Origin: a virus
Virus record (IMG/VR): IMGVR_UViG_3300045988_124743
Location: 1-42,274 of that record
Strand: one strand, 5' to 3'
Length of the DNA stretch: 42,274 nt
Under the pieces are notes generated by a model. It was not told where the DNA came from. It searched no databases and worked only from the letters and a program-made list of their open reading frames with translations. A program made the translations under genes and the position numbers. Shown piece by piece: positions 17,865 through 32,897 of this stretch. Each line of letters starts with the position of its first letter. Position 1 is the stretch's first letter.

Positions 17865-17897
17865 ATAAAAAACACCTGGACTTTTACATCCAGGTGT
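17865..17897 (-). terminator. Rho-independent terminator of int (the stem overlaps the int stop codon)
   Basis: - strand: ACACCTGGA-tgtaaaag-TCCAGGTGT followed by TTTTTTAT. Confidence 0.7.
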
Positions 17898-18990
17898 TCT
17901 TGTTTTTATCCATGAAATTAACAATATCTTTGTCGGCTTGTGGCAACCAATGTGCATATACTTGTAGCACTGTGTCTAATTCGTCGCCTAAGCGCTTTGC
18001 AATGTCATAGACGGAGAAATTGACCTTTCCCCCTGTAACCATATTGTTTATCATATAAGACGCGCTAGAGTGCCTTAAATCGTGCATTCGTAGCATTGGT
18101 ATCTTATCTTCATCTTTTAATCGTTTATTTAATGCATTTACATTGTTCTGTAATTGCTTGGTCACCTTTGACCTACTGAACGGTATGTCTATGCCAAAGA
18201 TGTATGAGTCATCTGGAACATCCAGTCTCGACTTTAGTGCTTTATACTCGTTGGCCAAAAACTGTGGCATGCTTATTTGTCTGTAGCTGTTTGGCGTTTT
18301 TGGTGTTGTGCACTTTCTGAGCTTGTCGTTCCATGTCTTATTGATTGTGATCGTGTTGTTTTCAAAATCTAAATCTTTCCATTGAAGAGCAAGTGCTTCT
18401 CCAATACGAGTACCCATGTAGAACTGGTTACTGAACAATAAATGAAAGATTGTTGAATCAACGTTGTTTATAAATTTGTTGAATTGTTCTTCTGTCCAAA
18501 ATACCATTTCTTCTTTGTGAAGATTTGGGTCTTTTTTTAGATCAACCTTATTACATGGATTGGTTGTTATGTACTCATGCTTCATAGCATAGCGCATAAG
18601 GACACATAGACGCATATAATACTCATTCACAGTAGAATACTTCTTGTCGGCAAGAAGTCGCTCTAAAACGTCCTGAATGTCTTCTGAGGTGATGTCTCTT
18701 AAAACTTTATCACCAAGGGCACTTCTCCATACGTTAAATTCAACTCTGTGATTATTGTAGGTGGATTCCTTGATTCTCTTTTCTGAGTATTCCTGATATA
18801 TGTCTATCATTGTACTCAGTGTCATTGTAGAGCCTGGATTCATCAAACTCTCTTTGAATTGTATCTCTGCTTTTATTGCATCTTGCTTTCTATCAAAGCC
18901 ACGCTTTTTGTATTGCTTAGTTTTGTTCCCTACTTTGTAAGAACCATAGTAATACCACTTGTTTGTGTTGTTGTCTCTTTTTACCGCCAT
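17884..18990 (-). CDS. int: Tyrosine integrase (lysogeny integrase)
   Basis: N-terminal arm-binding-like KWYYYGSYKVGNKTKQYKKRGF. Catalytic signature TRIGEALALQWKDL, LRMHDLRHSSASYMI and VLQVYAHW (R..HxxR..Y). Adjacent to an AT-rich attP-like region. Confidence 0.9.
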   Translation of the reverse strand: MAVKRDNNTNKWYYYGSYKVGNKTKQYKKRGFDRKQDAIKAEIQFKESLMNPGSTMTLSTMIDIYQEYSEKRIKESTYNNHRVEFNVWRSALGDKVLRDITSEDIQDVLERLLADKKYSTVNEYYMRLCVLMRYAMKHEYITTNPCNKVDLKKDPNLHKEEMVFWTEEQFNKFINNVDSTIFHLLFSNQFYMGTRIGEALALQWKDLDFENNTITINKTWNDKLRKCTTPKTPNSYRQISMPQFLANEYKALKSRLDVPDDSYIFGIDIPFSRSKVTKQLQNNVNALNKRLKDEDKIPMLRMHDLRHSSASYMINNMVTGGKVNFSVYDIAKRLGDELDTVLQVYAHWLPQADKDIVNFMDKNKNTWM

Positions 18991-19008
18991 AATGTTTTCC
19001 CCCAGCAT

Positions 19009-19447: not shown

Positions 19448-20542
19448 TTATGCAATTTCTGTTAATGGTGTTGGGTCAACCCAAATACCGCCAATTTTAA
19501 CAATATTCTTTTGAGCATTCACTGCATCGACTCTGATTCGAGATACATAGACTACTGCATTTGTGGTATGCAATACATTGTCATTATATCCATCTGAATT
19601 AGGTACTTTGTCGACTAAACGAATTGGAAACCAACCGCCTAATTGAGCAAGATAAGCACATAAATCATCACCAATCTTTTTCAAGCCTTGATTACCAATC
19701 TTCATATGCACAGATGTAACATAGCTACCTTCATGCAAGATTTGGTCGATAGCTTCTGCACTAGACTGTGTTGCTCCAACTGGTGTGTGAGGGTCTGTAT
19801 CAATACCAGCATCATTAGTCCATCCAATCGCTACACCATTACGGTCTACTCGATACGGATATTTAGCACCTTTAATGACTCTGCCAATAGAACCACTCCA
19901 ATCACCTTTTACAATTTTAGAAGTTCCGTAGCAGTTAACGCTTAATGTATTTGTGCAGATAGGTATACCGACTGAATACTTCTCATCACTTGGAGTGTTT
20001 GGAGTACTTGGAGCACTTGGTGCTACAGTTTGACCATCCAATCTAGCATTTACTTCTTGTGCTAATTGAGGCATTTTCGAATGTAAATAAGGGCCTGGGC
20101 AAGATGTAGCTGCGAACATTCTATGTTCTGTCAAACTTCCAGTTGAATCACCAGTGTAGTTTAATCTGAATCCATATCGTTTACATACATCCACGCATAG
20201 ATTTACCAATGCATTCCATGCTTTTGATGAGATTGTCCATGCATCTGTATTATCATTAGCAATTTCAATTGTAATTGATTGGCAATCATTGTAGTAGTTG
20301 CTCGAAGTCCACGCTCTGTTTTCTTCGTCTACATTCGAAACAATCGTACCATCTGAACCGATGCAATAGTTTGCACTAGCCATTCTTCCGCTTACTTGGA
20401 ATGACTGAGCACATCGTTCTGCCGACCACGTGCATGCCATGTGATGAGGCGTGATTTTGCAAACTTTGTAGCCACCACGTCCACGCATATAGTTGTCTGC
20501 ACTAGCAGGAATATATTTATTTGTTAAGCTTGAATATGACAT
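19448..20542 (-). CDS. Endolysin: N-acetylmuramoyl-L-alanine amidase (Amidase_2/PGRP-type) with C-terminal cell-wall-binding repeats
   Basis: KITPHHMACTWSAERCAQSF...ASANYCIGSDGTIVSNVDEENRAWTSS...SITIEIAND and EHRMFAATSCPG match amidase_2 motifs. The position after the holin is typical. Confidence 0.85.
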   Translation of the reverse strand: MSYSSLTNKYIPASADNYMRGRGGYKVCKITPHHMACTWSAERCAQSFQVSGRMASANYCIGSDGTIVSNVDEENRAWTSSNYYNDCQSITIEIANDNTDAWTISSKAWNALVNLCVDVCKRYGFRLNYTGDSTGSLTEHRMFAATSCPGPYLHSKMPQLAQEVNARLDGQTVAPSAPSTPNTPSDEKYSVGIPICTNTLSVNCYGTSKIVKGDWSGSIGRVIKGAKYPYRVDRNGVAIGWTNDAGIDTDPHTPVGATQSSAEAIDQILHEGSYVTSVHMKIGNQGLKKIGDDLCAYLAQLGGWFPIRLVDKVPNSDGYNDNVLHTTNAVVYVSRIRVDAVNAQKNIVKIGGIWVDPTPLTEIA

Positions 20543-21050: not shown

Positions 21051-21323
21051 CTATTCATCTTCATTTTTGCCTTCAATGAAACGTGTAAATGCCTGATGCA
21101 GTCCGGTAGATGCCAATCCCATCACTGCCCCATATACGGCACTTTCAATCGAAAGGCCTGATACCGCTAGATTTAATGTCATTCCAATTAAAGCAAGCAC
21201 TGTTGGAATATATTTGTTAGGAAAACTTGTAAATGATGTTTTTAAAATATATCCGACAACTAAGCATGCTACCAAAACAACTAAAACAAAATAATTTGTA
21301 ACTTGTGTAAAATCTAAATTCAT
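21051..21323 (-). CDS. Holin (90 aa, 2-3 TM helices)
   Basis: Start chosen at MNLDF with RBS aggagg. TM segments YFVLVVLVACLVVGYIL, IPTVLALIGMTLNLAV and AVYGAVMGLAS, with a charged C-terminus. Confidence 0.65.
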   Translation of the reverse strand: MNLDFTQVTNYFVLVVLVACLVVGYILKTSFTSFPNKYIPTVLALIGMTLNLAVSGLSIESAVYGAVMGLASTGLHQAFTRFIEGKNEDE

Positions 21324-21366
21324 ATAAAATCCTCCTATTAATATAAAAAAAGCGAGGTAAACAAAA

Positions 21367-22260
21367 ATGCTATATTCTGACAAATTACATTCTTGGCTTC
21401 GAGAAAAGAAAATCTATCTAAAATACAGCACTTACACAAATTATTGTAATGTGATTCACAATCACATACTGCCATCACTTGGCAGCTATCAGATTGAAGA
21501 TTTGAACAACGATATTCTTCAGGAGTTTATTCTTCAAAAGCTTGAAAACGGTCGTAAAGATGGAAAAGGTGGCATATCGTTTAAATATGCCAAAGACATT
21601 ATCCAAATTCTTAAATTTACACTTCCGTTCAAAGTCGATGTTCAGTTGCCTTACCATCCTCCTACGGCGGTAGAGATTTTTGAAAAAGAACATCAAGTTT
21701 CATTGATTAATCACCTCCAATCTGAAATAAACTGTAAAAACTTTGGAATCCTTTTATGCATCCACACTGGAATACGCATAGGTGAACTATGCGCTCTTAA
21801 ATGGTCTGATATAAACACTCAAACCAAATTGTTAAAAATAGATAAAACCATGATACGTACATACACAAAAGAAGACGGTAGTCATCTTTCAATAACACCG
21901 CCTAAATCACGTTCTAGCACTAGAATGATTCCCTTGAACACATGGATAATGCATTATGCAATACTGCTTCAAGGTGATGCAGACAACTATGTATTAACAA
22001 ATCAAGATAAACCAATAGAACCTAATAAATACAGATTGTATTACAATAAGCTGCTTAAAGAGCTCGAACTACCACATAGGAAGTTTCACGCACTTAGACA
22101 TACTTTCGCAACAAGATGCATTGAGTGTGGTTGTGACTATAAATCACTTAGTGAATTGCTTGGCCACTCCAACGTATCAATCACAATGAACATCTACGTG
22201 CATCCTCAAATGGAATTAAAACGCAAATGCGTTGAACTGCTTTGTGACTATTACAAGTAA
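21367..22260 (+). CDS. Second tyrosine recombinase (candidate tail-fibre invertase, shufflon-type)
   Basis: RIGELCALKWSDI, HALRHTFATRCI and LGHSNVSITMNIYVH give the R..HxxR..H..Y catalytic signature. One of the few + strand genes in the late region, it is directly followed by inverted tail-fibre tip cassettes. Confidence 0.85.
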   Translation: MLYSDKLHSWLREKKIYLKYSTYTNYCNVIHNHILPSLGSYQIEDLNNDILQEFILQKLENGRKDGKGGISFKYAKDIIQILKFTLPFKVDVQLPYHPPTAVEIFEKEHQVSLINHLQSEINCKNFGILLCIHTGIRIGELCALKWSDINTQTKLLKIDKTMIRTYTKEDGSHLSITPPKSRSSTRMIPLNTWIMHYAILLQGDADNYVLTNQDKPIEPNKYRLYYNKLLKELELPHRKFHALRHTFATRCIECGCDYKSLSELLGHSNVSITMNIYVHPQMELKRKCVELLCDYYK

Positions 22261-22264
22261 ATGT

Positions 22265-22522
22265 ATGTCATTTACTGTTAATACTACAGGTGGTGAGTAC
22301 GCACATACCTTGTCTTTATCCGAGATTCCACCTCATAATCATAAAGTGCCTGCTCAAGAAGATAGCAGTGCTTCATTGCGTGCATATAATCATCTAAGTA
22401 CATACAACGTAAACAAAGACAGTCACTATTGGTATACAACAACTAGTATTGAAGGAGAAGGCAAAGCTCATAACAACATTCCTCCATACGTTGTTGTTTA
22501 CTTCTGGAGACGTACTGCATAA
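22265..22522 (+). CDS. Silent alternative tail-fibre C-terminal cassette 1 (no RBS of its own)
   Basis: MSFTVNTTGGEYAHTLSLSEIPPHNH...GKAHNNIPPYVVVYFWRRTA is the second half of a tail-collar-like domain. It is inverted relative to the tail-fibre gene. Confidence 0.6.
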   Translation: MSFTVNTTGGEYAHTLSLSEIPPHNHKVPAQEDSSASLRAYNHLSTYNVNKDSHYWYTTTSIEGEGKAHNNIPPYVVVYFWRRTA

Positions 22523-22524
22523 GT

Positions 22525-22803
22525 ATGTCCTTTACGTCCAATAGCACTGGCGGTGAATTTAAACATAAACTTGTACTTGAAGAGATGCCCAATCATACGC
22601 ACTATATATTAGATCAACTTGCAGATGGCAATATTGGAATTAGCGGAGACCCAGGTGGAAAGTCGCCTTATACTAGAGCTACTGAACGTGCAGATAGAAC
22701 AAAAAAATATTGGTGGGGTACTACATACCCTTCTGGAGGAGATAAAGCTCACAATAACGTTCAACCATATATTGTTACCTATTTTTGGAGAAGAACAAAG
22801 TAA
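22525..22803 (+). CDS. Silent alternative tail-fibre C-terminal cassette 2 (no RBS of its own)
   Basis: MSFTSNSTGGEFKHKLVLEEMPNHTH...GDKAHNNVQPYIVTYFWRRTK. Its stop codon abuts the stop of the convergent tail-fibre gene. Confidence 0.6.
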   Translation: MSFTSNSTGGEFKHKLVLEEMPNHTHYILDQLADGNIGISGDPGGKSPYTRATERADRTKKYWWGTTYPSGGDKAHNNVQPYIVTYFWRRTK

Positions 22804-24546
22804 TTACTTGATTCTTTTCCAAAAGAATACAGTCATGTAAGGCTGAATATTATTATGTGGCTCATTACCTCCTTCTTCTCTTGTGTGCGCAGAATAATAT
22901 GAACCCAGTGGTATCGAAATTTCAGATTGATATGTTACATATTGGTCTGAAATATTTGGAGTACTACCATCGTTTCCAGTACCTTCACCGACCAAAGTTC
23001 TACCTTGTCCAAAACGCTCCCAAGTTCCACCCAAGAAGTTTCCAGGATTGTTATTGTCGTATGTAATATATACCGCACCAACTGGGAATATCTTATTCAA
23101 GAAAATAGGAGCTACAATATCACCTAATACTGTTAATGTATCTTTTTGATTGCTATCTTGGCCAAAGAATGTCAATGATCTTCCATCTTTTCCAAAGTTA
23201 ATTAACGAGTAAGTAGGTGTTACAGTAAATATTTGCCATGAATAGTCATTCATGAATTTATCTTTAACACCGAATGCCACCTCATACGAACTAGTTGCAG
23301 ATGTAAATAAGTTACCTGCTTTATAGTCTTGTTCCAACGTGTAGTTGTTATCCCATGAATTTATTTTCGTCCATGAACTAGCTCCACTAGCTCGATATTG
23401 GATATAGAATGATGTCACATTCTTACCAGTTAAACTAGTAAATCCAACTTTGAAGTGTAGCAGTGCATATGTACCACTTGCTTCATCTACTACATAACTT
23501 GAATCAGCACGATTTGCACTTACATTCGTTAAGCTAGGCGAACTATATGCAGATACAGTTACCTTTCCACTGACTTGTGAACTTCTACCACGTGAATCAT
23601 AGATTGTTGTCGTATAGCTAACACTTCCACTACCTTTTACAGTTCCAGTAGTAAATGAACTACCATTGTATGTTTGTCCTTCAAATTTGGTTGATACAGA
23701 TGTAACAGTTGAGCCTTGCGCACCACTGTAAGTTATTGCGAACTTCAGTCTAGATTGTGACTGAACTATCTGCCCAATTCCTACACATACTGAATTTGCA
23801 TCTGTTACTTCGATACCATCAATTGAAGGAACTACACTGCTTCTGACTTTAACAGTTGCATTTACGGATTTTGAGCCAACTGATGTTGAGCCACTGTATG
23901 TTTCTAAAGTAAAAGTAGCAATTTCACTTGTAGAGTTAGGCAAGTCCTTTTCCCATGCGGTTGGAATGGTATAAGAAAAGCTAGGGGTTGTTGTACCGCT
24001 AGCTATTGTTTTTATATGTGTTTTTGTTCCATTCCAAGTTACATAAACTTTATGACTGAATTTACTTGATGCACTTGTACCACTAATCTTGATTGTGCTG
24101 CCACATTCTAGACTTGGCTTATCAATAGAAGGACTTGTAGCACGTGGTATTGTCGTTAGCGTTAACGAGCCACTGCACGAACCACTTCTAGGTGCATAAT
24201 AATTTGTGCTATCACAACTAAACGAAGCACTCACAGGTATTTTTTTTGAACCATCTGAATCATGTGTGATTGTCGTTGTTCCTTGTGCAACATCAATTGT
24301 CTGACCTGCGCCACAAGTGATCGTGTGATTTGCATTATGCACTGTAGTACTGTTTATAACTACTTTGAAGTTTTCTGTTAATCCAGTGTGGCTATGATAT
24401 TGTGTGTTAGATCGAATACTAACTAGCCAATACACAACAGACGTGTTTTTTTCAACAGAATACGACTTTTCACGATATTGTAATATTAAAGAGTATTTAT
24501 TCTCTTCACCACTCGTAATTCGTATACTTCCACTACATTCTGCCAT
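22804..24546 (-). CDS. Tail fibre / receptor-binding protein (DUF859-like N-terminus, tail-collar-like C-terminus)
   Basis: The N-terminus KYSLILQYREKSYSVEKNTSVVYWLVSIRS...ITHDSDGSKKIPVSASF is DUF859-like. The C-terminus is FPVGAVYITYDNNNPGNFLGGTWERFGQGRTLVGEG...GGNEPHNNIQPYMTVFFWKRIK. Confidence 0.8.
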   Translation of the reverse strand: MAECSGSIRITSGEENKYSLILQYREKSYSVEKNTSVVYWLVSIRSNTQYHSHTGLTENFKVVINSTTVHNANHTITCGAGQTIDVAQGTTTITHDSDGSKKIPVSASFSCDSTNYYAPRSGSCSGSLTLTTIPRATSPSIDKPSLECGSTIKISGTSASSKFSHKVYVTWNGTKTHIKTIASGTTTPSFSYTIPTAWEKDLPNSTSEIATFTLETYSGSTSVGSKSVNATVKVRSSVVPSIDGIEVTDANSVCVGIGQIVQSQSRLKFAITYSGAQGSTVTSVSTKFEGQTYNGSSFTTGTVKGSGSVSYTTTIYDSRGRSSQVSGKVTVSAYSSPSLTNVSANRADSSYVVDEASGTYALLHFKVGFTSLTGKNVTSFYIQYRASGASSWTKINSWDNNYTLEQDYKAGNLFTSATSSYEVAFGVKDKFMNDYSWQIFTVTPTYSLINFGKDGRSLTFFGQDSNQKDTLTVLGDIVAPIFLNKIFPVGAVYITYDNNNPGNFLGGTWERFGQGRTLVGEGTGNDGSTPNISDQYVTYQSEISIPLGSYYSAHTREEGGNEPHNNIQPYMTVFFWKRIK

Positions 24547-24550
24547 TCAA

Positions 24551-27500
24551 TCACCCTACTTTCTTGAAGTCCAAAGAGCCATTTGCTCTTGGCACAAATC
24601 CAAATGCGTCTACTTTTAAAGACTGCGTAAATTGTCCATCTGTAATGTACATTGTTTGGTCGTTGATATATGTTACATTTGCACCATTTTTTTGAATCGA
24701 CCATTCTTTGTTTGTAATCTTAATTTTAAATGCGCTATCCGATTTACCTAAAGTTAATGCATCATTATCAAACGACATATAACTATTTACGTTGTCAGTG
24801 GTTTGCTTTAAACCATCAACACGACCATTTACACTGTCGATTTGACCGCCCATCTCATTCTTTGCATCAGTTACCGACTGATTGATTGACCATGTAAAGT
24901 CATTTTTTGTCTGAGTGAACTGAGTTGATACAGTATTTTGATAATGTTCAAATGCCGAATTTGATACATAAGTTTCTGATACTTTGCTTGTAATTTCATT
25001 CGCCTTTGTCTCAATAGCAGATTGTCGCTCAGTACGTTCTGTATTGATTGCTTCATCTACATCTTCAGGAGCTGGAGTCCAGTCTGTATTTTTATTTCCT
25101 AGCTCTAATTTAATCTTTTTAATATATATAGTTGCTGAATCTTGTCGTGTCAAAAAACATACTTTAGGAGTATCTTTTTTTATTCCCACAACAAATGTAG
25201 TGCTATAAAGTTTCCAATCTTTAGAGTCTATAGTTGCATAAGCCAGTGCAGCATTATTATAGCTATCATCTTTTATTTCTAATTGTACATTTGAATCGCA
25301 TTTGGCATAAAAAGAAATCGTGTATGTCTGTCCTAACACTAAATCAATGAACTGATATATATAATTTAAGAAACTATTACTTAAAGAAACATAATAGAAT
25401 CCATCTACATCTTTGGTTGGTGTTTCTGGTGCGCCGCTTAATCCGAAATTTGGTTTAAAAGTTTGAGTACTTAATAATAAATTACGCCCACCAATTTGTA
25501 AGTTATCAATCTTATTGTTAGCTTCAGTAATGGACTTTGCTTGTAATTTAATCGCATTTGCATTCTGCTCAATTGCAGTTGTATTTGAAGTAACTTTGTT
25601 TGTTAGTTCTGCAAGGTCTTTCTGAGCTTGTTCTGCTTTAGCTTTTGCATCATCCGCAACTCCTTGAGCCGCCTTTGCATCGTTGATTGCCGTAGTTGCG
25701 TTGCCTTGAGCCTTAGTTGCATCAGATTGAGCTTTCTCCACTGCAGTTTCTGCGTTTGTTAAACGAGTTTGAGCTTTAGTGATTTCAGATTCTGTCGCAT
25801 CCACTCTACCTGTAACTGTTTCTAGATTCGCTTTAGCATCTGCCAACTCTTTATTAGCGTTGTCTAAATTTGCTTGAGCACTATCTGCACTTCTCTTCGC
25901 TTCATCTGCTAAAGTTTGAGCGCTCTGAGCATTGCCTAAAGCTTTATCTGCTTGAGCCTGAGCATCCGTTGCTTTTTTAGTCGCATCAGTAATATCTTTC
26001 TGAGCTTGAGTTGTATCTGATTGCAACTTTTCAATTGAACTTGCTTGAGTTGTGATTGAATCTGCATTTTGTTGAATCTTAGTATTTAAACTACCTTCAA
26101 TGCTTGTTAAATCACTCTTAGAAGCATAAGTTTCTGATACAGTAGTCGACAATTCACCGACTTTCTTTTCAATCTCAGTACTTACATCTGCATGAATAGA
26201 TTTTGATTCAGTAGTTAAATCAACTTTAGTAGCATATGTTTCTTTAACGGTAGCAATTTCACTTGCGTTTGCGTTGGCTTTATCCACTGCATCTTGAATT
26301 TGTTGCTTTGAATCAGTGATATCACCTTTAATTGCATCAATTTGTTCTTGAGCTTTACCAGTGCTTGTGTTCGCATCTTGTGCTAGTTGCTTAGCTTCAC
26401 TTGATTGAGTGTTAGCGGTATTTGCCAATTCATTGGCTTTACTTGCATCTGTCTGAGCTTGTGTTGCTTTTTCAATTGCTTCTTTTGATTGCACATTCAC
26501 TTGAGACACTTGAGTGTGAATCTCACCGATTTTCGCATCAATTTCATTCCAAGTGTTATCAAAAATAGCTTTTGTATACTTGATTTCACTTGGATTAGCA
26601 TACGTACATTTCCATCTTTTCCAAAGAAACTTATCACTTTGATAAACCACATTACCAACAAACCACTCACCACCGACTAATTCGGTTTGTGATGTTGAAT
26701 AATAGAATTGTTCCTCGGCACTTACAAATGACTGACCATCTTCGCCTTTAATTGCACTCCATCGGTATTTGGTTGGGTCATCACTGCCATATTGTTTTGA
26801 ATCCGAATACTGACCAATAAATTTACGATTTGAATCCGTTAAACTGAAATCAACACGACCATCTGAACTATTGGCATAGGCAATATGCACATATGCGCTT
26901 GATCCATTCTGACCGTCTTGTAGTCGCATTACAGTGACTTCTGCACTTGCTTTAAGTATTTCACCACTCATTGCTTTAAATCGGTATACGGCCTTTTCTG
27001 TGAAGTCTGAAGCGTTGACTGTAATGGTCTGACTTGTCGATATTTGCTTATCATCTTTATACCAAATAATTGAATACTTAGATGTAATATCAACACCATC
27101 ATTTTTAACTAATGCGGTAAGCTTAGTTGAATCTGAATCGGTCTTAAACAAAACTCCATTTGAAGATACAATTGAACCTTCGTAAACCTTCTTCAATTCA
27201 ATCATCTTGTTCATTTCACTGATCAAAGCCGAACTAATCTGTGATTGTTTTTCTTCAAAGTTATCAAAAATAGTTTTGCATTTCTCTGAATCTGTAAAAC
27301 AAATCTCTTGTTCTGTGATTCGTGCTTCTAAATATAAAGTAGGACTATACTCAGCATCTTCAATCGTGAACGTATCACCGATATCCGCATCAATATATGC
27401 ATCTACATCATATGTAACTTTAGGAACACAATTCTTTTTCAATTGAGCTAGTGCTTGACCGTATAATGTCTCAACATTTTCAGTTTCATAAGACCAAATT

Positions 27501-28363
27501 TGTACTGCGTACATATCATTTGAATTATTCGTAAGTAAAGTTGAAGGAAATCTATCCCTTGATTGAGGTGCTAGTATGTTGTTTCCATTAACTTTATACA
27601 AAACATTTCCATTTGTATCTTTTACAACTCGACCACTAATTGAATATAACTGTAATCCATTTGTTCCTGTAGGCCTGATTGCAGTGTATAGCTCAGTAAT
27701 ATCACTTGTTTTCGTGATTCCATATACATCGTTTGGATACCTTAATGTCGTACTGCGCTTGTCACTTCCCATACCTTGAGCACTGTCTGAATGAGTTCTG
27801 TAAATATTCAAAACAAAATTCTTCAAAGAATAATCGTCATTCAATTGAGTTACGAACTCTAATTCTGCATCAAATACATTTGCGATTGAATACAATCGAG
27901 CTAGTACAGTATCACTTCCAGTCCACTCATGCGTGATACGTTTGTCTGATACCTCATTTTTGCCAATTACGAACGATTTCTCAAATCCATACGCATTTAC
28001 ATATTCTGCAAATGACATCGCTCTAGTAGCTTTATATGCATCTACATATTCATTCGTTAATTCAAGGCAAAGACCGTAGGCGGTAACAGTTGTTGTGTTA
28101 CCACCTTTTTCAACATTCATGATCGTTAAATAATAGCCTTTGTTTTTTCTTGTAAAGCTCAATTTATTTCCTTCAACTAAAAAGACTGCATCATCATGTG
28201 CAGTCAATGTAGTGAATTCAAATGTATATGCTGAGCCTTTCAAATATGTATGCAATGTTTCATCAAAGTAATGCATTGCACTAGATACTGTATTGTCTAA
28301 AAAAGCTAGAACCTTATCGTAAGGAGTTAATACTGCTATTCTGATTTGTTCCATTATAACCAT
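24551..28363 (-). CDS. Tail-associated protein (Tal-like minor structural protein) with a long Ala/Gln/Thr-rich coiled coil and a C-terminal binding domain
   Basis: The N-terminus IRIAVLTPYDKVLAFLDN...YTFEFTT...YYLTIMNVEK is typical of the 'phage minor structural protein N-terminal region' that follows Dit. 1270 aa. Confidence 0.8.
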   Translation of the reverse strand: MVIMEQIRIAVLTPYDKVLAFLDNTVSSAMHYFDETLHTYLKGSAYTFEFTTLTAHDDAVFLVEGNKLSFTRKNKGYYLTIMNVEKGGNTTTVTAYGLCLELTNEYVDAYKATRAMSFAEYVNAYGFEKSFVIGKNEVSDKRITHEWTGSDTVLARLYSIANVFDAELEFVTQLNDDYSLKNFVLNIYRTHSDSAQGMGSDKRSTTLRYPNDVYGITKTSDITELYTAIRPTGTNGLQLYSISGRVVKDTNGNVLYKVNGNNILAPQSRDRFPSTLLTNNSNDMYAVQIWSYETENVETLYGQALAQLKKNCVPKVTYDVDAYIDADIGDTFTIEDAEYSPTLYLEARITEQEICFTDSEKCKTIFDNFEEKQSQISSALISEMNKMIELKKVYEGSIVSSNGVLFKTDSDSTKLTALVKNDGVDITSKYSIIWYKDDKQISTSQTITVNASDFTEKAVYRFKAMSGEILKASAEVTVMRLQDGQNGSSAYVHIAYANSSDGRVDFSLTDSNRKFIGQYSDSKQYGSDDPTKYRWSAIKGEDGQSFVSAEEQFYYSTSQTELVGGEWFVGNVVYQSDKFLWKRWKCTYANPSEIKYTKAIFDNTWNEIDAKIGEIHTQVSQVNVQSKEAIEKATQAQTDASKANELANTANTQSSEAKQLAQDANTSTGKAQEQIDAIKGDITDSKQQIQDAVDKANANASEIATVKETYATKVDLTTESKSIHADVSTEIEKKVGELSTTVSETYASKSDLTSIEGSLNTKIQQNADSITTQASSIEKLQSDTTQAQKDITDATKKATDAQAQADKALGNAQSAQTLADEAKRSADSAQANLDNANKELADAKANLETVTGRVDATESEITKAQTRLTNAETAVEKAQSDATKAQGNATTAINDAKAAQGVADDAKAKAEQAQKDLAELTNKVTSNTTAIEQNANAIKLQAKSITEANNKIDNLQIGGRNLLLSTQTFKPNFGLSGAPETPTKDVDGFYYVSLSNSFLNYIYQFIDLVLGQTYTISFYAKCDSNVQLEIKDDSYNNAALAYATIDSKDWKLYSTTFVVGIKKDTPKVCFLTRQDSATIYIKKIKLELGNKNTDWTPAPEDVDEAINTERTERQSAIETKANEITSKVSETYVSNSAFEHYQNTVSTQFTQTKNDFTWSINQSVTDAKNEMGGQIDSVNGRVDGLKQTTDNVNSYMSFDNDALTLGKSDSAFKIKITNKEWSIQKNGANVTYINDQTMYITDGQFTQSLKVDAFGFVPRANGSLDFKKVG

Positions 28364-29877
28364 GCCTCCCTAATTCTAGCTTTTATAGTTGGTTTTGATT
28401 TTGACCAACTTGAACACGTAAGCTTCACTTCTGTTGTTCCTACTGGAGCTTTAAAATATTTAGTTCCTAATACCTCATCTTGAGGTCTACTCATACCATT
28501 TACATAAACATGAGATGATTTACCATCGATAGTAATCTTCGTGCCATTAGGATATCTGTTAGGAATGTTTCTCCATTTCGATACGTTGTTCTTTGTAAAA
28601 TCAATTGTATTAAATCCAATCATGTTCATCATTTTATTGCCACTACGGTCACCAACTTGCTTACATGAGATTTGAATTTTTGTACACTTCATATTTGAAA
28701 TTTCTGGAATATAGTAATAAAAATATTTGCCAAAATATGAAAACCTAAGATTTCCACCTTCTTTTAAAACATCGCAATTACTCCATGGCCAATACCAAGG
28801 ATTCTGATTTTTAAGATGTGATGTTGTGTAATTAAAGTTTGCAAGAATTTTTCCATTTCCCCAAATTTCATAATGTCCAGTGTTTCCAACCGCATCTGCT
28901 TTATACCAGTTACATCCGCATATGATTTTATTGTCTGAAGTTAAAAAGCTAATGCACATTTCACCAGTTTGCCCCATCAAACTAGCATAAAATATAGATC
29001 GCATATAGCAATAGAAGTTCTGAGCTCCACTAGCTCCATTAGAGTCAGCTGGTAACACTAAGGTTCTTAATCCACCACTTGAATACCCTTTTTTTGTTCC
29101 AGTTGAACCAAAGCCTAAGAAGTTTTGATTGAACCAAGTATGTTGAGAAAGTGTACCATTACTTCCATAAGTAGGATGCATATAATCTGTGCCACTTTTG
29201 TCATCTACACAATTTATAAAACTACTTATAGTTGCTAATCTTTCGCTTCGTTGATAAATTTCCGAATCTAATTCTTCAATCTTTCCATACTGCATTACTC
29301 CTTCAGTTGATACGATACCAATATATCCAGTTTCAGATGTTGTCTGAACCTCATAATCAATGCTTACAGGTACAGTTCCTTCATTGACAATGTTTAACAC
29401 TCCATCAGTAGCAGTAAATTCTTTTTCTATGGATGAATATTTCCTAGGGTCTGAGCAATAGATTTCGATTTCACCGATAACGTTATTACTTCCACCATCA
29501 ACTTGTGTATTAGATGTCTTAGTTCCAATGAAATACTTGTCGCTTTCATCATTAAAAATGACTTTTACTTGCTCACCACTCAACAATTTATTCATCTTGT
29601 TGTAAGCTTCACGAAATTCTCTGCTACCTCTAGCTTTTAACTGATATTTAACAGTAATCGTTCTTGCAGGAGTTGTTTTATATCTGTAATAAGAGCCATC
29701 CATTCCATCAATTTCAGTATGTTTTACCTCTGATTCCATCAACTCACGTCCTGTTACAGAAAGTGTACGATATCCATCTATTTCATTTTCTAAATATACA
29801 CCATTATATGACATGGCTTCTGTCGGTAGGTTAGTACCGACGATGCCACTATTTACTGTATTTACGAATGCATACAT
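28354..29877 (-). CDS. Distal tail protein (Dit, siphovirus tail component) with a C-terminal extension
   Basis: YRTLSVTGRELMESEVKHTEIDGMDGSYYRYKTTPARTITVKYQL is Sipho_tail-like. Lies immediately after the tape measure. Confidence 0.8.
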   Translation of the reverse strand: MYAFVNTVNSGIVGTNLPTEAMSYNGVYLENEIDGYRTLSVTGRELMESEVKHTEIDGMDGSYYRYKTTPARTITVKYQLKARGSREFREAYNKMNKLLSGEQVKVIFNDESDKYFIGTKTSNTQVDGGSNNVIGEIEIYCSDPRKYSSIEKEFTATDGVLNIVNEGTVPVSIDYEVQTTSETGYIGIVSTEGVMQYGKIEELDSEIYQRSERLATISSFINCVDDKSGTDYMHPTYGSNGTLSQHTWFNQNFLGFGSTGTKKGYSSGGLRTLVLPADSNGASGAQNFYCYMRSIFYASLMGQTGEMCISFLTSDNKIICGCNWYKADAVGNTGHYEIWGNGKILANFNYTTSHLKNQNPWYWPWSNCDVLKEGGNLRFSYFGKYFYYYIPEISNMKCTKIQISCKQVGDRSGNKMMNMIGFNTIDFTKNNVSKWRNIPNRYPNGTKITIDGKSSHVYVNGMSRPQDEVLGTKYFKAPVGTTEVKLTCSSWSKSKPTIKARIREAWL

Positions 29878-32800
29878 TATCTGTTACCTCGCAATCTTTC
29901 ATTGAATTTAGAACGTTTATCAAACTCACTCTGATTTGCTCTATATGTTGCACGTGCAAATTCACGATCATTGATGTAAAGAGGGGTTTCGATGGTTAAT
30001 TCAGCATTGTTTGTGTAGTCGTATTCTGAGTTCAAGTCGCTCACAATGCCTCCAAAAGCCATTTTAGGTGTATTCATCATAGGAAGATAGAATAAATTTT
30101 CTGAGGCTCTTTTTACGTCAGAATACATTGATTCAAGGCCTAGAACAAAGCCTTTTCCAATCCACATACCATCTTTTTTAGTAACCTTTGATGGAGATCC
30201 AATCTTAGCTTTAGCCTGAATTGCTGCATCCGCAGCAGCTGCTAAACTAGCGGCCGCCGCTCTGACTGAACCTTCGCTTGCTCTTAAACCATTGGCAAGT
30301 CCTTGGCCAATCATCTGGCCACAATATTGTGCTCTTGACTGACACGCATTAAATGCACTGATAATGTTATTGCATGACGATCTTGCAACAGACACGCCTT
30401 TTGATAAGCCTCCTTTAAGTCCTGATGTAAACTTAGTACCCATTGCAGTTCCTGAAGTAGTAGCTTTTGCTTCTGCATTTGTCATTGCGGTAACAATTGC
30501 GTTAATAGACGTTACTGATGCACTAGATGCACTTGTAAATGCACTACTAATTGTTGATGCTACTGTAACCAACACCGCAATACTTGTTGCAGTAGCCATT
30601 ACAGAACTTGCAACTGGTGCAATAGCTCCTGCAAATGCAGTCATAGCTCCACTTGCAACTGTTAATGGTTCTGAAATTCCGCTTAATGAGCTTAAAGCAT
30701 CTGATAATGATGGAATTGTTGCCGATAATGATTCAATACCTGCTTGAGTTGATACGATCATTGTTAATGCGCTTGCTAATGCCATCATTTGAGCACCAAT
30801 ATCACCCATTCCACTTGATGCAGTTGCAATAGCTCCAATTCCTACTGCTACCGCTCCTAGACTAGCTCCCATATCAATTAAGTTAAGGCTCGTAATAATT
30901 TGGATTCCTTTCGCTAATTCTTTAAATCCTTTACCCGCGTTTAGTGCCGACTGTCCAATAGATTTAATCACTCCAGATACTGAATTTAAGATTCCACTTA
31001 CTGTTTCACCAAATGATTGAATCACATTTGAAATCCCTTCAAAAACATCTTTAATAACTGGGCCACACGCAGATACAACATCTGCAACTCCCTCAAGAAC
31101 CGTTTGTAAACCTTCACCTTGTGAACCGACCAATGCCATAGCAGCACCAGTTGCAAGAATAGCCGCTGCCAACGCAAGCCATGTAGTTGGTGGTACCATT
31201 GCAATTGCAGTTCCTAAACCCGTAAATGCAGTGGCCAAACCTTGTCCAATACCTTGCGCTACTGTATTGATTGCAGTACCAAATGATTCAATAACAGTAC
31301 CGACTCCTTCTAACGCGGATTTGATTCCATTTCCAAGTCCTTCGAATACATTACTAACTGCATCTCCTAGACTGGTAATAATTCCTTTTGCTCCTTCACA
31401 CACAGAAGAAATAACATTTGAAATCCCTTCAAATGCAGAATTAATAATCTGTGCAGCTTTAGATGTTTTCTGTGCAGTTTGTATACTTGCATTTCCAATA
31501 TCAGATACACCACTTGAAGAAGGACTAGAAGTTGGAGTCCCTTCTTTTCCTCCGATGCCTTTTATCTTGTTAACGATTGATTGAAGTTTTGAATATCCAC
31601 TCTTTGCAGAGCCAACAACTCCACCAATCATACTAGATACTTTGCTACCAACTTTAATGCCAACAAATGCTCCAGCCAATAATTTGACTGCACCTGCAAA
31701 CTTCTTGACATCTTCTGTTTTAAGATTTGCGATAAAGTCTGCAATTTTACCAGTTACATCTTCTACTTTTGCAATGATATTTCCAATATCCTGTCCTAAC
31801 TGTTCAAAGACTTTACTGTCTTGTAACTTATCCATTACATTACCAATAGCATCTTTGATTTTATCGAACATTGTGATTGCATTTTGCACTGCATCCGTTT
31901 TCATGAATCCATCATAGAATTGTTGGATCATAGCTTTAGCGTTGTTTGCTCTGTCCGCAAGCCAATCCATAGCTTTTGATACATTTTCCATGACTTCTGG
32001 TTTAAAGTCCCATGTCAAACCATCGTCCTTAGTGTCCATAATTGAATTTCTGAAATCATAGATTTTTGATTTAATCTTTTCTAGATTATCAACTAATCCA
32101 CCCATAGCTTTCGACTTCAACATATTGTTCATAGCCGACATAAAGCCTTGTTCAAGGTTCTGTACCGCACTTTTAATATTTGTCATGGATGTTTTGACAC
32201 CTTTAGATGCTTCTAATGCAGTTTCTGCAAATCCACCTGTTTCTGTATCACATTCAATCATTGCATCATTAAACTGATCAAATGTAATCGTTCCATTCTG
32301 CAACGCTTCATACAATTCATTTGCATCTCCACTTGCAATACCTAGTTTCTTAGATACCTTAGTTAATGCAGGTGCCATTGTTTCCTGCAATGTTCTCCAT
32401 GACTGCATATCAACTGTTCCTTTAGCAAGCATCTGTGAATACTGTTGTAACCCACGTGATGCACCTTCAGAACTAGATCCACTTGCTAAAAACGCATGGT
32501 TTAATGCGATTGTAGTATCAGTTGCCTTATCAATATTGCCTGTTACGGCCGCTAACGATTTCGATGTTGTAACTACGTCTGCTAATGATGTAGGCAAGCC
32601 TTGTACAGACTGATTTAATTTTGCAACACTCTTTTGAGATTGCCCTACAGCGAACCCCAAAGACTTCATAACTTTTGGATAGGATTGCATGGTATCGAAT
32701 CTGTTAATTGCCCCATCTAACGAGGAACTTAAAACATTCATAGAAGCGCCTATTACTTTGGTGATTCCAACGCCCGCTACAATAGATTTAACTCTATCGC

Positions 32801-32897
32801 CAAAAGATTGACACGCTCCGATAGCTTTTTTCATTGTTGAAGACATATTTTTGTCAGTTGCCGACAATATAGCCTCAACACTAAAACTTTCTGCCAT
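29877..32897 (-). CDS. Tape measure protein
   Basis: 1006 aa. Core SLADVVTTSKSLAAVTGNIDKATDTTIALNHAFLASGSSSEGASRGLQQYSQMLAKGTVDMQSWRTLQE. Long Gly/Ala/Ser/Val-rich helical segments. Confidence 0.9.
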   Translation of the reverse strand: MAESFSVEAILSATDKNMSSTMKKAIGACQSFGDRVKSIVAGVGITKVIGASMNVLSSSLDGAINRFDTMQSYPKVMKSLGFAVGQSQKSVAKLNQSVQGLPTSLADVVTTSKSLAAVTGNIDKATDTTIALNHAFLASGSSSEGASRGLQQYSQMLAKGTVDMQSWRTLQETMAPALTKVSKKLGIASGDANELYEALQNGTITFDQFNDAMIECDTETGGFAETALEASKGVKTSMTNIKSAVQNLEQGFMSAMNNMLKSKAMGGLVDNLEKIKSKIYDFRNSIMDTKDDGLTWDFKPEVMENVSKAMDWLADRANNAKAMIQQFYDGFMKTDAVQNAITMFDKIKDAIGNVMDKLQDSKVFEQLGQDIGNIIAKVEDVTGKIADFIANLKTEDVKKFAGAVKLLAGAFVGIKVGSKVSSMIGGVVGSAKSGYSKLQSIVNKIKGIGGKEGTPTSSPSSSGVSDIGNASIQTAQKTSKAAQIINSAFEGISNVISSVCEGAKGIITSLGDAVSNVFEGLGNGIKSALEGVGTVIESFGTAINTVAQGIGQGLATAFTGLGTAIAMVPPTTWLALAAAILATGAAMALVGSQGEGLQTVLEGVADVVSACGPVIKDVFEGISNVIQSFGETVSGILNSVSGVIKSIGQSALNAGKGFKELAKGIQIITSLNLIDMGASLGAVAVGIGAIATASSGMGDIGAQMMALASALTMIVSTQAGIESLSATIPSLSDALSSLSGISEPLTVASGAMTAFAGAIAPVASSVMATATSIAVLVTVASTISSAFTSASSASVTSINAIVTAMTNAEAKATTSGTAMGTKFTSGLKGGLSKGVSVARSSCNNIISAFNACQSRAQYCGQMIGQGLANGLRASEGSVRAAAASLAAAADAAIQAKAKIGSPSKVTKKDGMWIGKGFVLGLESMYSDVKRASENLFYLPMMNTPKMAFGGIVSDLNSEYDYTNNAELTIETPLYINDREFARATYRANQSEFDKRSKFNERLRGNR

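Follow-up and report, generated by a model that had tools for sequence, protein, structure and literature searches.

A tail-fibre shufflon with a tyrosine recombinase in gut phages, and a copy of it probably locked by a small deletion

Introduction

Programmed inversions in tail-fibre genes are a recognised class of rearrangement (PMC9881135). The described system that comes closest to the locus reported here is the Rin shufflon of Bifidobacterium breve and Bifidobacterium longum prophages, which was called the first phage-encoded invertase of the tyrosine family and combines an arm-less tyrosine invertase with Rv cassettes, an Rc gene and 11-bp rix sites (Mavrich et al. 2018, PMC6109161); a Rin-type shufflon has since been reported for prophages of Eggerthella lenta (PMC8778435). 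Here we took the 42,274-nucleotide IMG/VR virus record IMGVR_UViG_3300045988_124743, the whole length of which is called the window below, and compared its tail-fibre locus, where a tyrosine recombinase gene is followed by two small silent cassettes that face a tail fibre gene, with the corresponding loci of related phages. We report that the module of the relatives is a true shufflon which rearranges at a 13-bp site, GTATGTCNTTTAC. We think it very likely that the window carries a shufflon by descent that was locked by a 114-bp microhomology deletion, leaving its fibre with one shortened tip. What is gained at the level of the family is a defined crossover site, the logic of its reading frame and the repertoire of cassettes.

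Rin and the present module share an arm-less tyrosine recombinase that flanks the array and is distinct from the lysogeny integrase, small promoterless cassettes coding for variable C-termini of a receptor-binding protein (RBP), and a constant RBP gene across the array. Rin and the present family also have in common a short asymmetric site before each cassette and inside the expressed gene, and inversions that are seen between genomes. The window itself has the arm-less recombinase and a cassette array lying between it and the RBP gene, whereas an inverted site inside the expressed gene and alternative orientations were found only in its relatives. The likeness is one of design and gene order. 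Rin is found in Actinomycetota, whereas the present family belongs to Bacillota (Erysipelotrichaceae); the site is GTATGTCNTTTAC here and rix, TTCCCTAACCC, in Rin; and the target is a Gp10_C domain like that of T4 gp10 here and a head resembling the TP901-1 RBP in Rin. Tail-fibre shufflons themselves are already established, and the literature that we searched held no tyrosine-recombinase shufflon of phage RBPs outside prophages of Actinomycetota. The preliminary description of the window had called a tyrosine-recombinase switch with several fibre cassettes unusual; this was overstated, given Rin since 2018 and then its counterpart in E. lenta.

The shufflon of the IncI1 plasmid R64 likewise works by multiple inversion, with a tyrosine recombinase beside cassettes that exchange the C-termini of an adhesin. 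Each of its short, asymmetric sfx sites has a conserved and a variable arm; in the present family, comparably, conservation is confined to the 13-bp core and the coding side. In R64, Rci acts on sfx in pilV, the gene of a plasmid pilus adhesin, whereas here the target is a phage fibre (DUF859, Gp10_C) and both site and target are unrelated; the recombinase has only sub-threshold matches to Xer-like and invertase models in NCBIfam, and the resemblance is one of mechanism only. Gin of phage Mu, Cin of P1 and Min of p15B have the same outcome, in that inversion supplies alternative fibre C-termini while the constant part lies outside the invertible DNA, but these are serine invertases of Gram-negative, myovirus-type phages, whereas the enzyme here is a tyrosine recombinase (PF00589, with an invariant Tyr277). 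Of these, p15B Min is a multi-cassette system (PMC6109161). The C-terminal domain of T4 gp10 (2FKK), finally, is part of a baseplate protein with no inversion, whereas here a single domain of this type is split into a constant and a variable part, and the expressed head of the window lacks 38 residues from the middle of it.

Results and Discussion

Inversion at a 13-bp site in related phages

The preliminary description had read the window locus as a shufflon and had proposed looking for other orientations of the block in related phage genomes. The kind of system and its geometry were recognised correctly, since relatives invert at a 13-bp site and show the block inverted and permuted; activity in the window itself did not hold up, as its fibre site is absent and the block is uniform, with a single orientation, in all copies of this genotype. 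The evidence from relatives begins with contigs that share a recombinase. The P0068 contigs, which carry an identical recombinase (73% identity to that of the window), have 1-4 small cassettes and differ in cassette number, order and strand, with a short Gp10_C gene adjoining on the opposite strand; the P0050 contigs follow the same pattern. Pairwise blastn revealed blocks of 300-590 bp with 95-100% identity that are inverted or moved between contigs of the same recombinase. For example, positions 1731-2263 of L010 are inverted in L006 (100% over 533 bp), and positions 896-1218 of L010 are inverted in L007 (99.4%). Neighbouring blocks overlap by 13-17 bp, and each overlap consists of GTATGTC(N)TTTAC, i.e. 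GTATGTCNTTTAC. This 13-mer, which could be recognised as the crossover site only by comparing contig with contig, heads every silent cassette in the loci of the relatives and bounds every rearranged block. In their expressed gene it lies in the opposite orientation at the junction of constant and variable parts, where the left flank is constant (ggNaaYgaYggtagtacaa) and the right flank is that of the currently fused cassette. The site is read as AGT ATG TCN TTT ACN, coding for S-M-S-F-T.

The same behaviour was seen in 49 further IMG/VR loci with 2-8 sites each, whose recombinases are at most 97% identical to that of the window. Arrays of relatives hold 1-7 Gp10_C cassettes beside the recombinase. 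The site was counted 190 times, in 157 distinct contexts. All of these instances follow the recombinase directly and none lies in the flanks; conservation is limited to the 13-bp core and, weakly, the positions just upstream. The cassettes are highly diverse across loci, and when they were clustered at ≥90% identity over 120 nucleotides, 17 of the 82 clusters were found both fused and silent. The module of the relatives is a true shufflon.

From these data we propose that the arm-less tyrosine recombinase would recognise the 13-bp site, which is embedded in coding sequence where the constant N-terminal part of a head domain like that of T4 gp10 gives way to the variable C-terminal part. A single copy lies in the expressed gene and oppositely oriented copies head the promoterless cassettes, so that inversion between this copy and that of any one cassette would fuse a new C-terminal part in frame. 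That the adjacent recombinase catalyses the inversions in the relatives we infer by analogy with other systems. In L053 the two partner sites, at +12 and +742 counted from the recombinase, both have GTATGAC in place of GTATGTC, and so do those of L059 (+12 and +501). From this paired variant a match between partner cores seems to be needed, which suggests that the centre of the 13-mer is the region of strand exchange and must be the same in both partners.

Some arrays have a more complex arrangement. L039, L040, L044, L061 and L073 contain back-to-back pairs of sites ∼18 bp apart that head divergent cassettes (for instance at +549, minus strand, and +580, plus strand, in L039), so that, as in the R64 shufflon, some invertible segments would have a cassette at either end. 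The largest array has 8 sites (L073). In L056 the flank at the end of the recombinase gene, gattattacaaatagtcaat, recurs inverted ∼700 bp downstream beside a site (+707, minus strand), through either an unusual duplication or a chimeric assembly at the shufflon.

Many contigs of relatives end at or just past the first site, as is expected where mixed orientations occur within one sample. The contigs of L029, L030, L018-L020, L062 and L070 stop 6-120 bp past the recombinase, and the scaffolds of L006 and L011 have runs of N exactly at sites. The shufflon thus breaks short-read assemblies systematically, and phages that carry it are probably under-represented as assemblies in databases; besides this effect, shufflons blur the prediction of host range. 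Two contigs of metagenome-assembled genomes, of Holdemanella sp. and Floccifex sp., end 15-17 bp past the recombinase, and because of these contigs we take the hosts to be gut Erysipelotrichaceae (Holdemanella, Floccifex), as they indicate.

The 114-bp deletion in the window fibre gene

The tail fibre gene of the window (22804-24546, minus strand, 580 amino acids) converges on the cassettes. Its constant part (22972-24546, minus strand), that of a tail fibre or receptor-binding protein, contains DUF859 (Pfam, E 1.3e-38) and the N-terminal part of Gp10_C. Pfam counts two Gp10_C stretches in the fibre, the better-scoring of which spans profile positions 2-43 (amino acids 483-523) and stops there. 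The expressed fibre does not hold a complete Gp10_C domain, being 38 residues short compared with its counterpart in L022. Both silent cassettes match profile positions 52-139, and the split of one domain between fibre and cassettes had been predicted in this form.

L022 holds the closest relative of the fibre, a protein of 618 amino acids with ∼91% identity at the DNA level, the two recombinases being 86% identical. Adding SMSFTTGSTGGEYKHSLTKKEMPSHFHTTVKGKDDGST to the window fibre gives that of L022: the L022 fibre ends ...GEGTGNDGST-SMSFTTGSTGGEYKHSLTKKEMPSHFHTTVKGKDDGST-PNISDKYVTY...FFWRRTY, whereas that of the window ends ...GEGTGNDGST-PNISDQYVTY...FFWKRIK. When the two DNA sequences are aligned, there is a single clean gap of 114 bp, or 38 codons, in frame. 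An 11-bp direct repeat, GATGGTAGTAC, bounds the 114-bp stretch of L022 on both sides, and blastn of the window against L022 returns two segments that overlap on those 11 bp at window positions 22961-22971 (minus strand), where the sole remaining copy of the repeat, coding for DGST, marks the deletion junction. The 114 bp missing from the window hold the inverted site (GTATGTCATTTAC) and the GGE-H-L-E-P-H-H segment, which is found in both silent cassettes and not in the expressed tip, as had been noticed before. What is left of the expressed cassette ('tip 3', PNISDQ...FFWKRIK, 22804-22960, minus strand) lacks the first 38 cassette codons and shares 95% identity with the distal part of the L022 tip. 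The tip-3 cassette was found only in L022-L024, intact and with its site, and in the window genotype, where it is deleted.

Two proposals of the preliminary description fall with this result. The interval 22955-22975, where the crossover in the fibre had been placed, contains the deletion junction and no site, and the locus does not carry three interchangeable C-terminal halves: judged from the alignment, the expressed tip is a shortened remnant and not a third such half, and only two sites, in direct orientation, are left.

Since an alignment of two sequences alone cannot separate a deletion from an insertion, the short tip could be the native form, in which case L022 would have acquired 114 bp and the window fibre would never have had a site. 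We regard this as very improbable. In 45 distinct contexts of the expressed junction in relatives, ggtagtacaa is followed directly by GTATGTCNTTTAC. The extra 38 amino acids are the conserved core of Gp10_C, and the complete head domain in its L022 form aligns end to end with residues 54-204 of T4 gp10 (2FKK, E 4e-6). The 11-bp direct repeat at both ends of the L022 stretch is in addition a signature of deletion. On account of the junctions and of the alignment with T4 gp10, these comparisons indicate that the short tip of the window is a derived deletion and not the result of an insertion in L022. The deletion arose most likely by slippage or microhomology between the copies of GATGGTAGTAC. 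A protein search with fibre residues 360-529 (170 amino acids, ending ...GNDGST) returned only fragments and distant Gp10_C proteins, and its negatives are untrustworthy here, as it missed the 580-amino-acid fibre of the window and the 618-amino-acid fibre of L022, both of which are in the collection.

State of the window copy

The window contains exactly two copies of the 13-mer GTATGTCNTTTAC (0.01 expected from shuffles), GTATGTCATTTAC at 22263-22275, the 5' end of cassette 1, and GTATGTCCTTTAC at 22523-22535, the 5' end of cassette 2, which is where the crossovers in the cassettes had been placed. Both lie on the plus strand and are thus direct repeats. The window has no minus-strand site with 0 or 1 mismatch, and matches with ≤2 mismatches number 7 against 4.55 expected, which is chance level. 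We considered whether a degenerate site survives in the fibre gene; the lone minus-strand match with ≤2 mismatches, GTAGTTCATTTAC at 23651-23663, codes for G-S-S-F-T-T in the frame of the true sites, but both of its mismatches fall at the centre of the core, and it was rejected as a chance match. A search of 21300-24600 found no long inverted repeats between the fibre junction and the cassettes, in line with their reported absence at the predicted crossovers.

We therefore had to weigh whether the window shufflon is still active, cassette 1 or 2 being fused by way of an inverted site in the fibre gene that is degenerate or cryptic. The recombinase and the cassettes are intact, the look-alike at 23651-23663 is in frame, and a remnant, AATATTTCA, resembles part of the core. 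However, there is no minus-strand site at 0 or 1 mismatch and no excess at ≤2, and use of the look-alike would drop the C-terminal half of the fibre; its differences are at the core centre, at which the shared variant of L053 and L059 suggests that partners must be identical. All contigs of the window genotype, moreover, run through the locus in one orientation. Continued switching by this route is in our judgement quite unlikely.

For each of the recombinase, cassette 2 and the fibre of the window there are 9-10 public contigs, which come from at least 4 samples and always show a single arrangement. The contigs of this genotype that we fetched all traverse the locus, with 100% identity along as much as 12.9 kb, and L084, a 99.8% variant, also has the deletion. 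Among the ∼10 assembled contigs of the window genotype there was no alternative orientation, whereas relatives show them; the genotype is assembled contiguously and uniformly, whereas relatives with intact sites are fragmented and permuted. This uniformity fits a heritable locked genotype. Invertible regions are prone to misassembly, and some scaffolds of relatives have runs of N at sites, so the deletion and the fixed orientation might be thought artefacts of assembly, but this is extremely unlikely: the same sequence was obtained in differing assemblies (k119/k141-style contigs and scaffolds from ENA, and Logan contigs), it was recovered from at least 4-5 samples including the 99.8% variant, and the 11-bp repeat is shorter than the k-mer sizes suggested by the ENA contig names.

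Taken with the shufflon of the relatives, this makes locking by deletion the reading that we prefer. Loss of 114 bp between the copies of GATGGTAGTAC removed the site of the expressed gene together with the first 38 cassette codons, leaving the recombinase, two silent cassettes whose sites are direct repeats, and a fibre with a short tip that would be fixed. Two direct sites would permit at most excision of cassette 1, and exchange of tips would be impossible. Going by its sites, the window copy probably does not switch.

Several points weigh against this reading. What links the recombinase to inversion is its adjacency in all loci and the analogy with Rci and Rin. Evidence at the level of contigs may be compatible with rare inversions at cryptic sites. 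The recombinase and both cassettes are still intact open reading frames (ORFs), which would be unexpected if the system had been dead for long; because they are intact, the lock probably arose recently, or something else accounts for the retention of the enzyme. A head domain shorter by 38 residues, finally, may or may not fold and bind a receptor.

Loss of switching appears to have occurred repeatedly among relatives, as seen from decayed copies. L071 retains only recombinase residues 1-216 and L074 only residues 1-153, both fused directly to cassette DNA, and in L050 the site at the expressed junction is mutated to ...TTTGA. A more far-reaching reading, which we hold to be unlikely, takes one of two forms. 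Either the recombinase and the stranded cassettes serve intermolecular exchange, in which the locked phage could act, through GTATGTCNTTTAC, as donor or acceptor of cassettes for co-infecting or co-resident relatives whose fibre site is intact, or deletion next to the site is a recurrent, selected freeze that could fix host range with a minimal head domain. If true, phage tail-fibre shufflons would gain a population-level layer in either case. Under the locked reading that we prefer, a small microhomology deletion can freeze a shufflon, and the window is a natural locked mutant and a ready-made negative control, with recombinase and cassettes but without the fibre site.

The silent cassettes

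Cassette 1 (22265-22522, plus strand) codes for 85 amino acids from its MSFT start and cassette 2 (22525-22803, plus strand) for 92; both are intact ORFs that correspond to the C-terminal part of Gp10_C (PF21939), covering profile positions 52-139 of 139 with E 4e-10 and 2.8e-09, respectively. The ORFs and coordinates were as first described. A 4-nucleotide gap had been given before each of them, which is right for cassette 1, but cassette 2 is preceded by only 2 nucleotides (TAA at 22520-22522, ATG at 22525). Cassette 2 is orthologous to the lone silent cassette of L022-L024, and the closest of the fetched cassettes to cassette 1 is 48% identical. Neither cassette has a Shine-Dalgarno sequence at a usable distance or a promoter, promoter-like sites being no more frequent than by chance, and the earlier statement that they lack a usable ribosome-binding site stands.

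Both ORFs are intact, begin with ATG and are annotated as genes by gene callers, as would be expected if they encoded independent proteins, for instance accessory or assembly factors of the fibre, and were not silent segments. This explanation is highly doubtful, as the ATG lies within the recombination site and is the internal methionine (S-M-S-F-T) of full-length fibres in relatives, each ORF spans only profile positions 52-139 of one domain, and other contigs have the same cassettes fused to the constant part; the missing Shine-Dalgarno and promoter signals speak against it as well.

The stop codons of cassette 2 and the fibre abut within a palindrome that matches at 18/21 positions and is real: it folds as a hairpin at 22783-22824 (-11.4 kcal/mol, z = -4.1), which may be a candidate bidirectional terminator. 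The palindrome arises because two homologous ...FW(R/K)R..* 3' ends converge there. As a crossover site it was ruled out, since it is accounted for by these convergent ends and no rearrangement in relatives has a boundary there.

The recombinase

The shufflon recombinase (21367-22260, plus strand, 297 amino acids) is XerC/D-like, with Phage_integrase (PF00589, E 3.8e-28) and Phage_int_SAM_3 domains in Pfam. It is, as had been stated, distinct from the lysogeny integrase (17884-19008): Pfam found no arm-binding domain in the recombinase, whereas the integrase has Arm-DNA-bind_4. Residues R137, H241, R244, H267 and Y277 are invariant among 13 homologues of 72-92% identity, by which measure the enzyme appears intact. 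NCBIfam gave only sub-threshold matches, to Xer-like and invertase models.

Homologues of the recombinase adjoin cassette arrays in every case. Metagenomic relatives number in the thousands, the best 120 having 70-92% identity, and one cluster at 90% comprises 2,215 sequences; the shufflon appears to be very common in phages of human-gut Erysipelotrichaceae. A tblastn search with the recombinase against GenBank phage records returned none above 40% (maximum 39% identity, mostly unannotated gut contigs), and megablast of the locus against GenBank phages gave zero matches.

Genome context

The window resembles a complete siphovirus genome, in which the recombinase and the two cassettes are the sole plus-strand block within the late region, wedged between lysis genes and tail genes. 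The former are an Amidase_2 endolysin (19448-20542) and a holin (21051-21383). A scan of the locus for promoters and terminators found nothing above chance. Upstream of the fibre lies the gene of a 1270-amino-acid tail protein (24551-28363, minus strand), and the tail genes also include a tape-measure protein (29877-32897) and a 507-amino-acid protein. For the cassette ORFs and the fibre, PHROGs likewise points to tail or tail-fibre families, the fibre itself matching PHROG 372, tail protein (E 1e-72). The 1270-amino-acid protein is possibly the principal distal tail or receptor-contacting protein, a role that would bear on whether the shortened fibre tip is dispensable. Its middle consists of a long, coiled-coil-like stretch of low complexity, rich in Ala, Gln and Lys.

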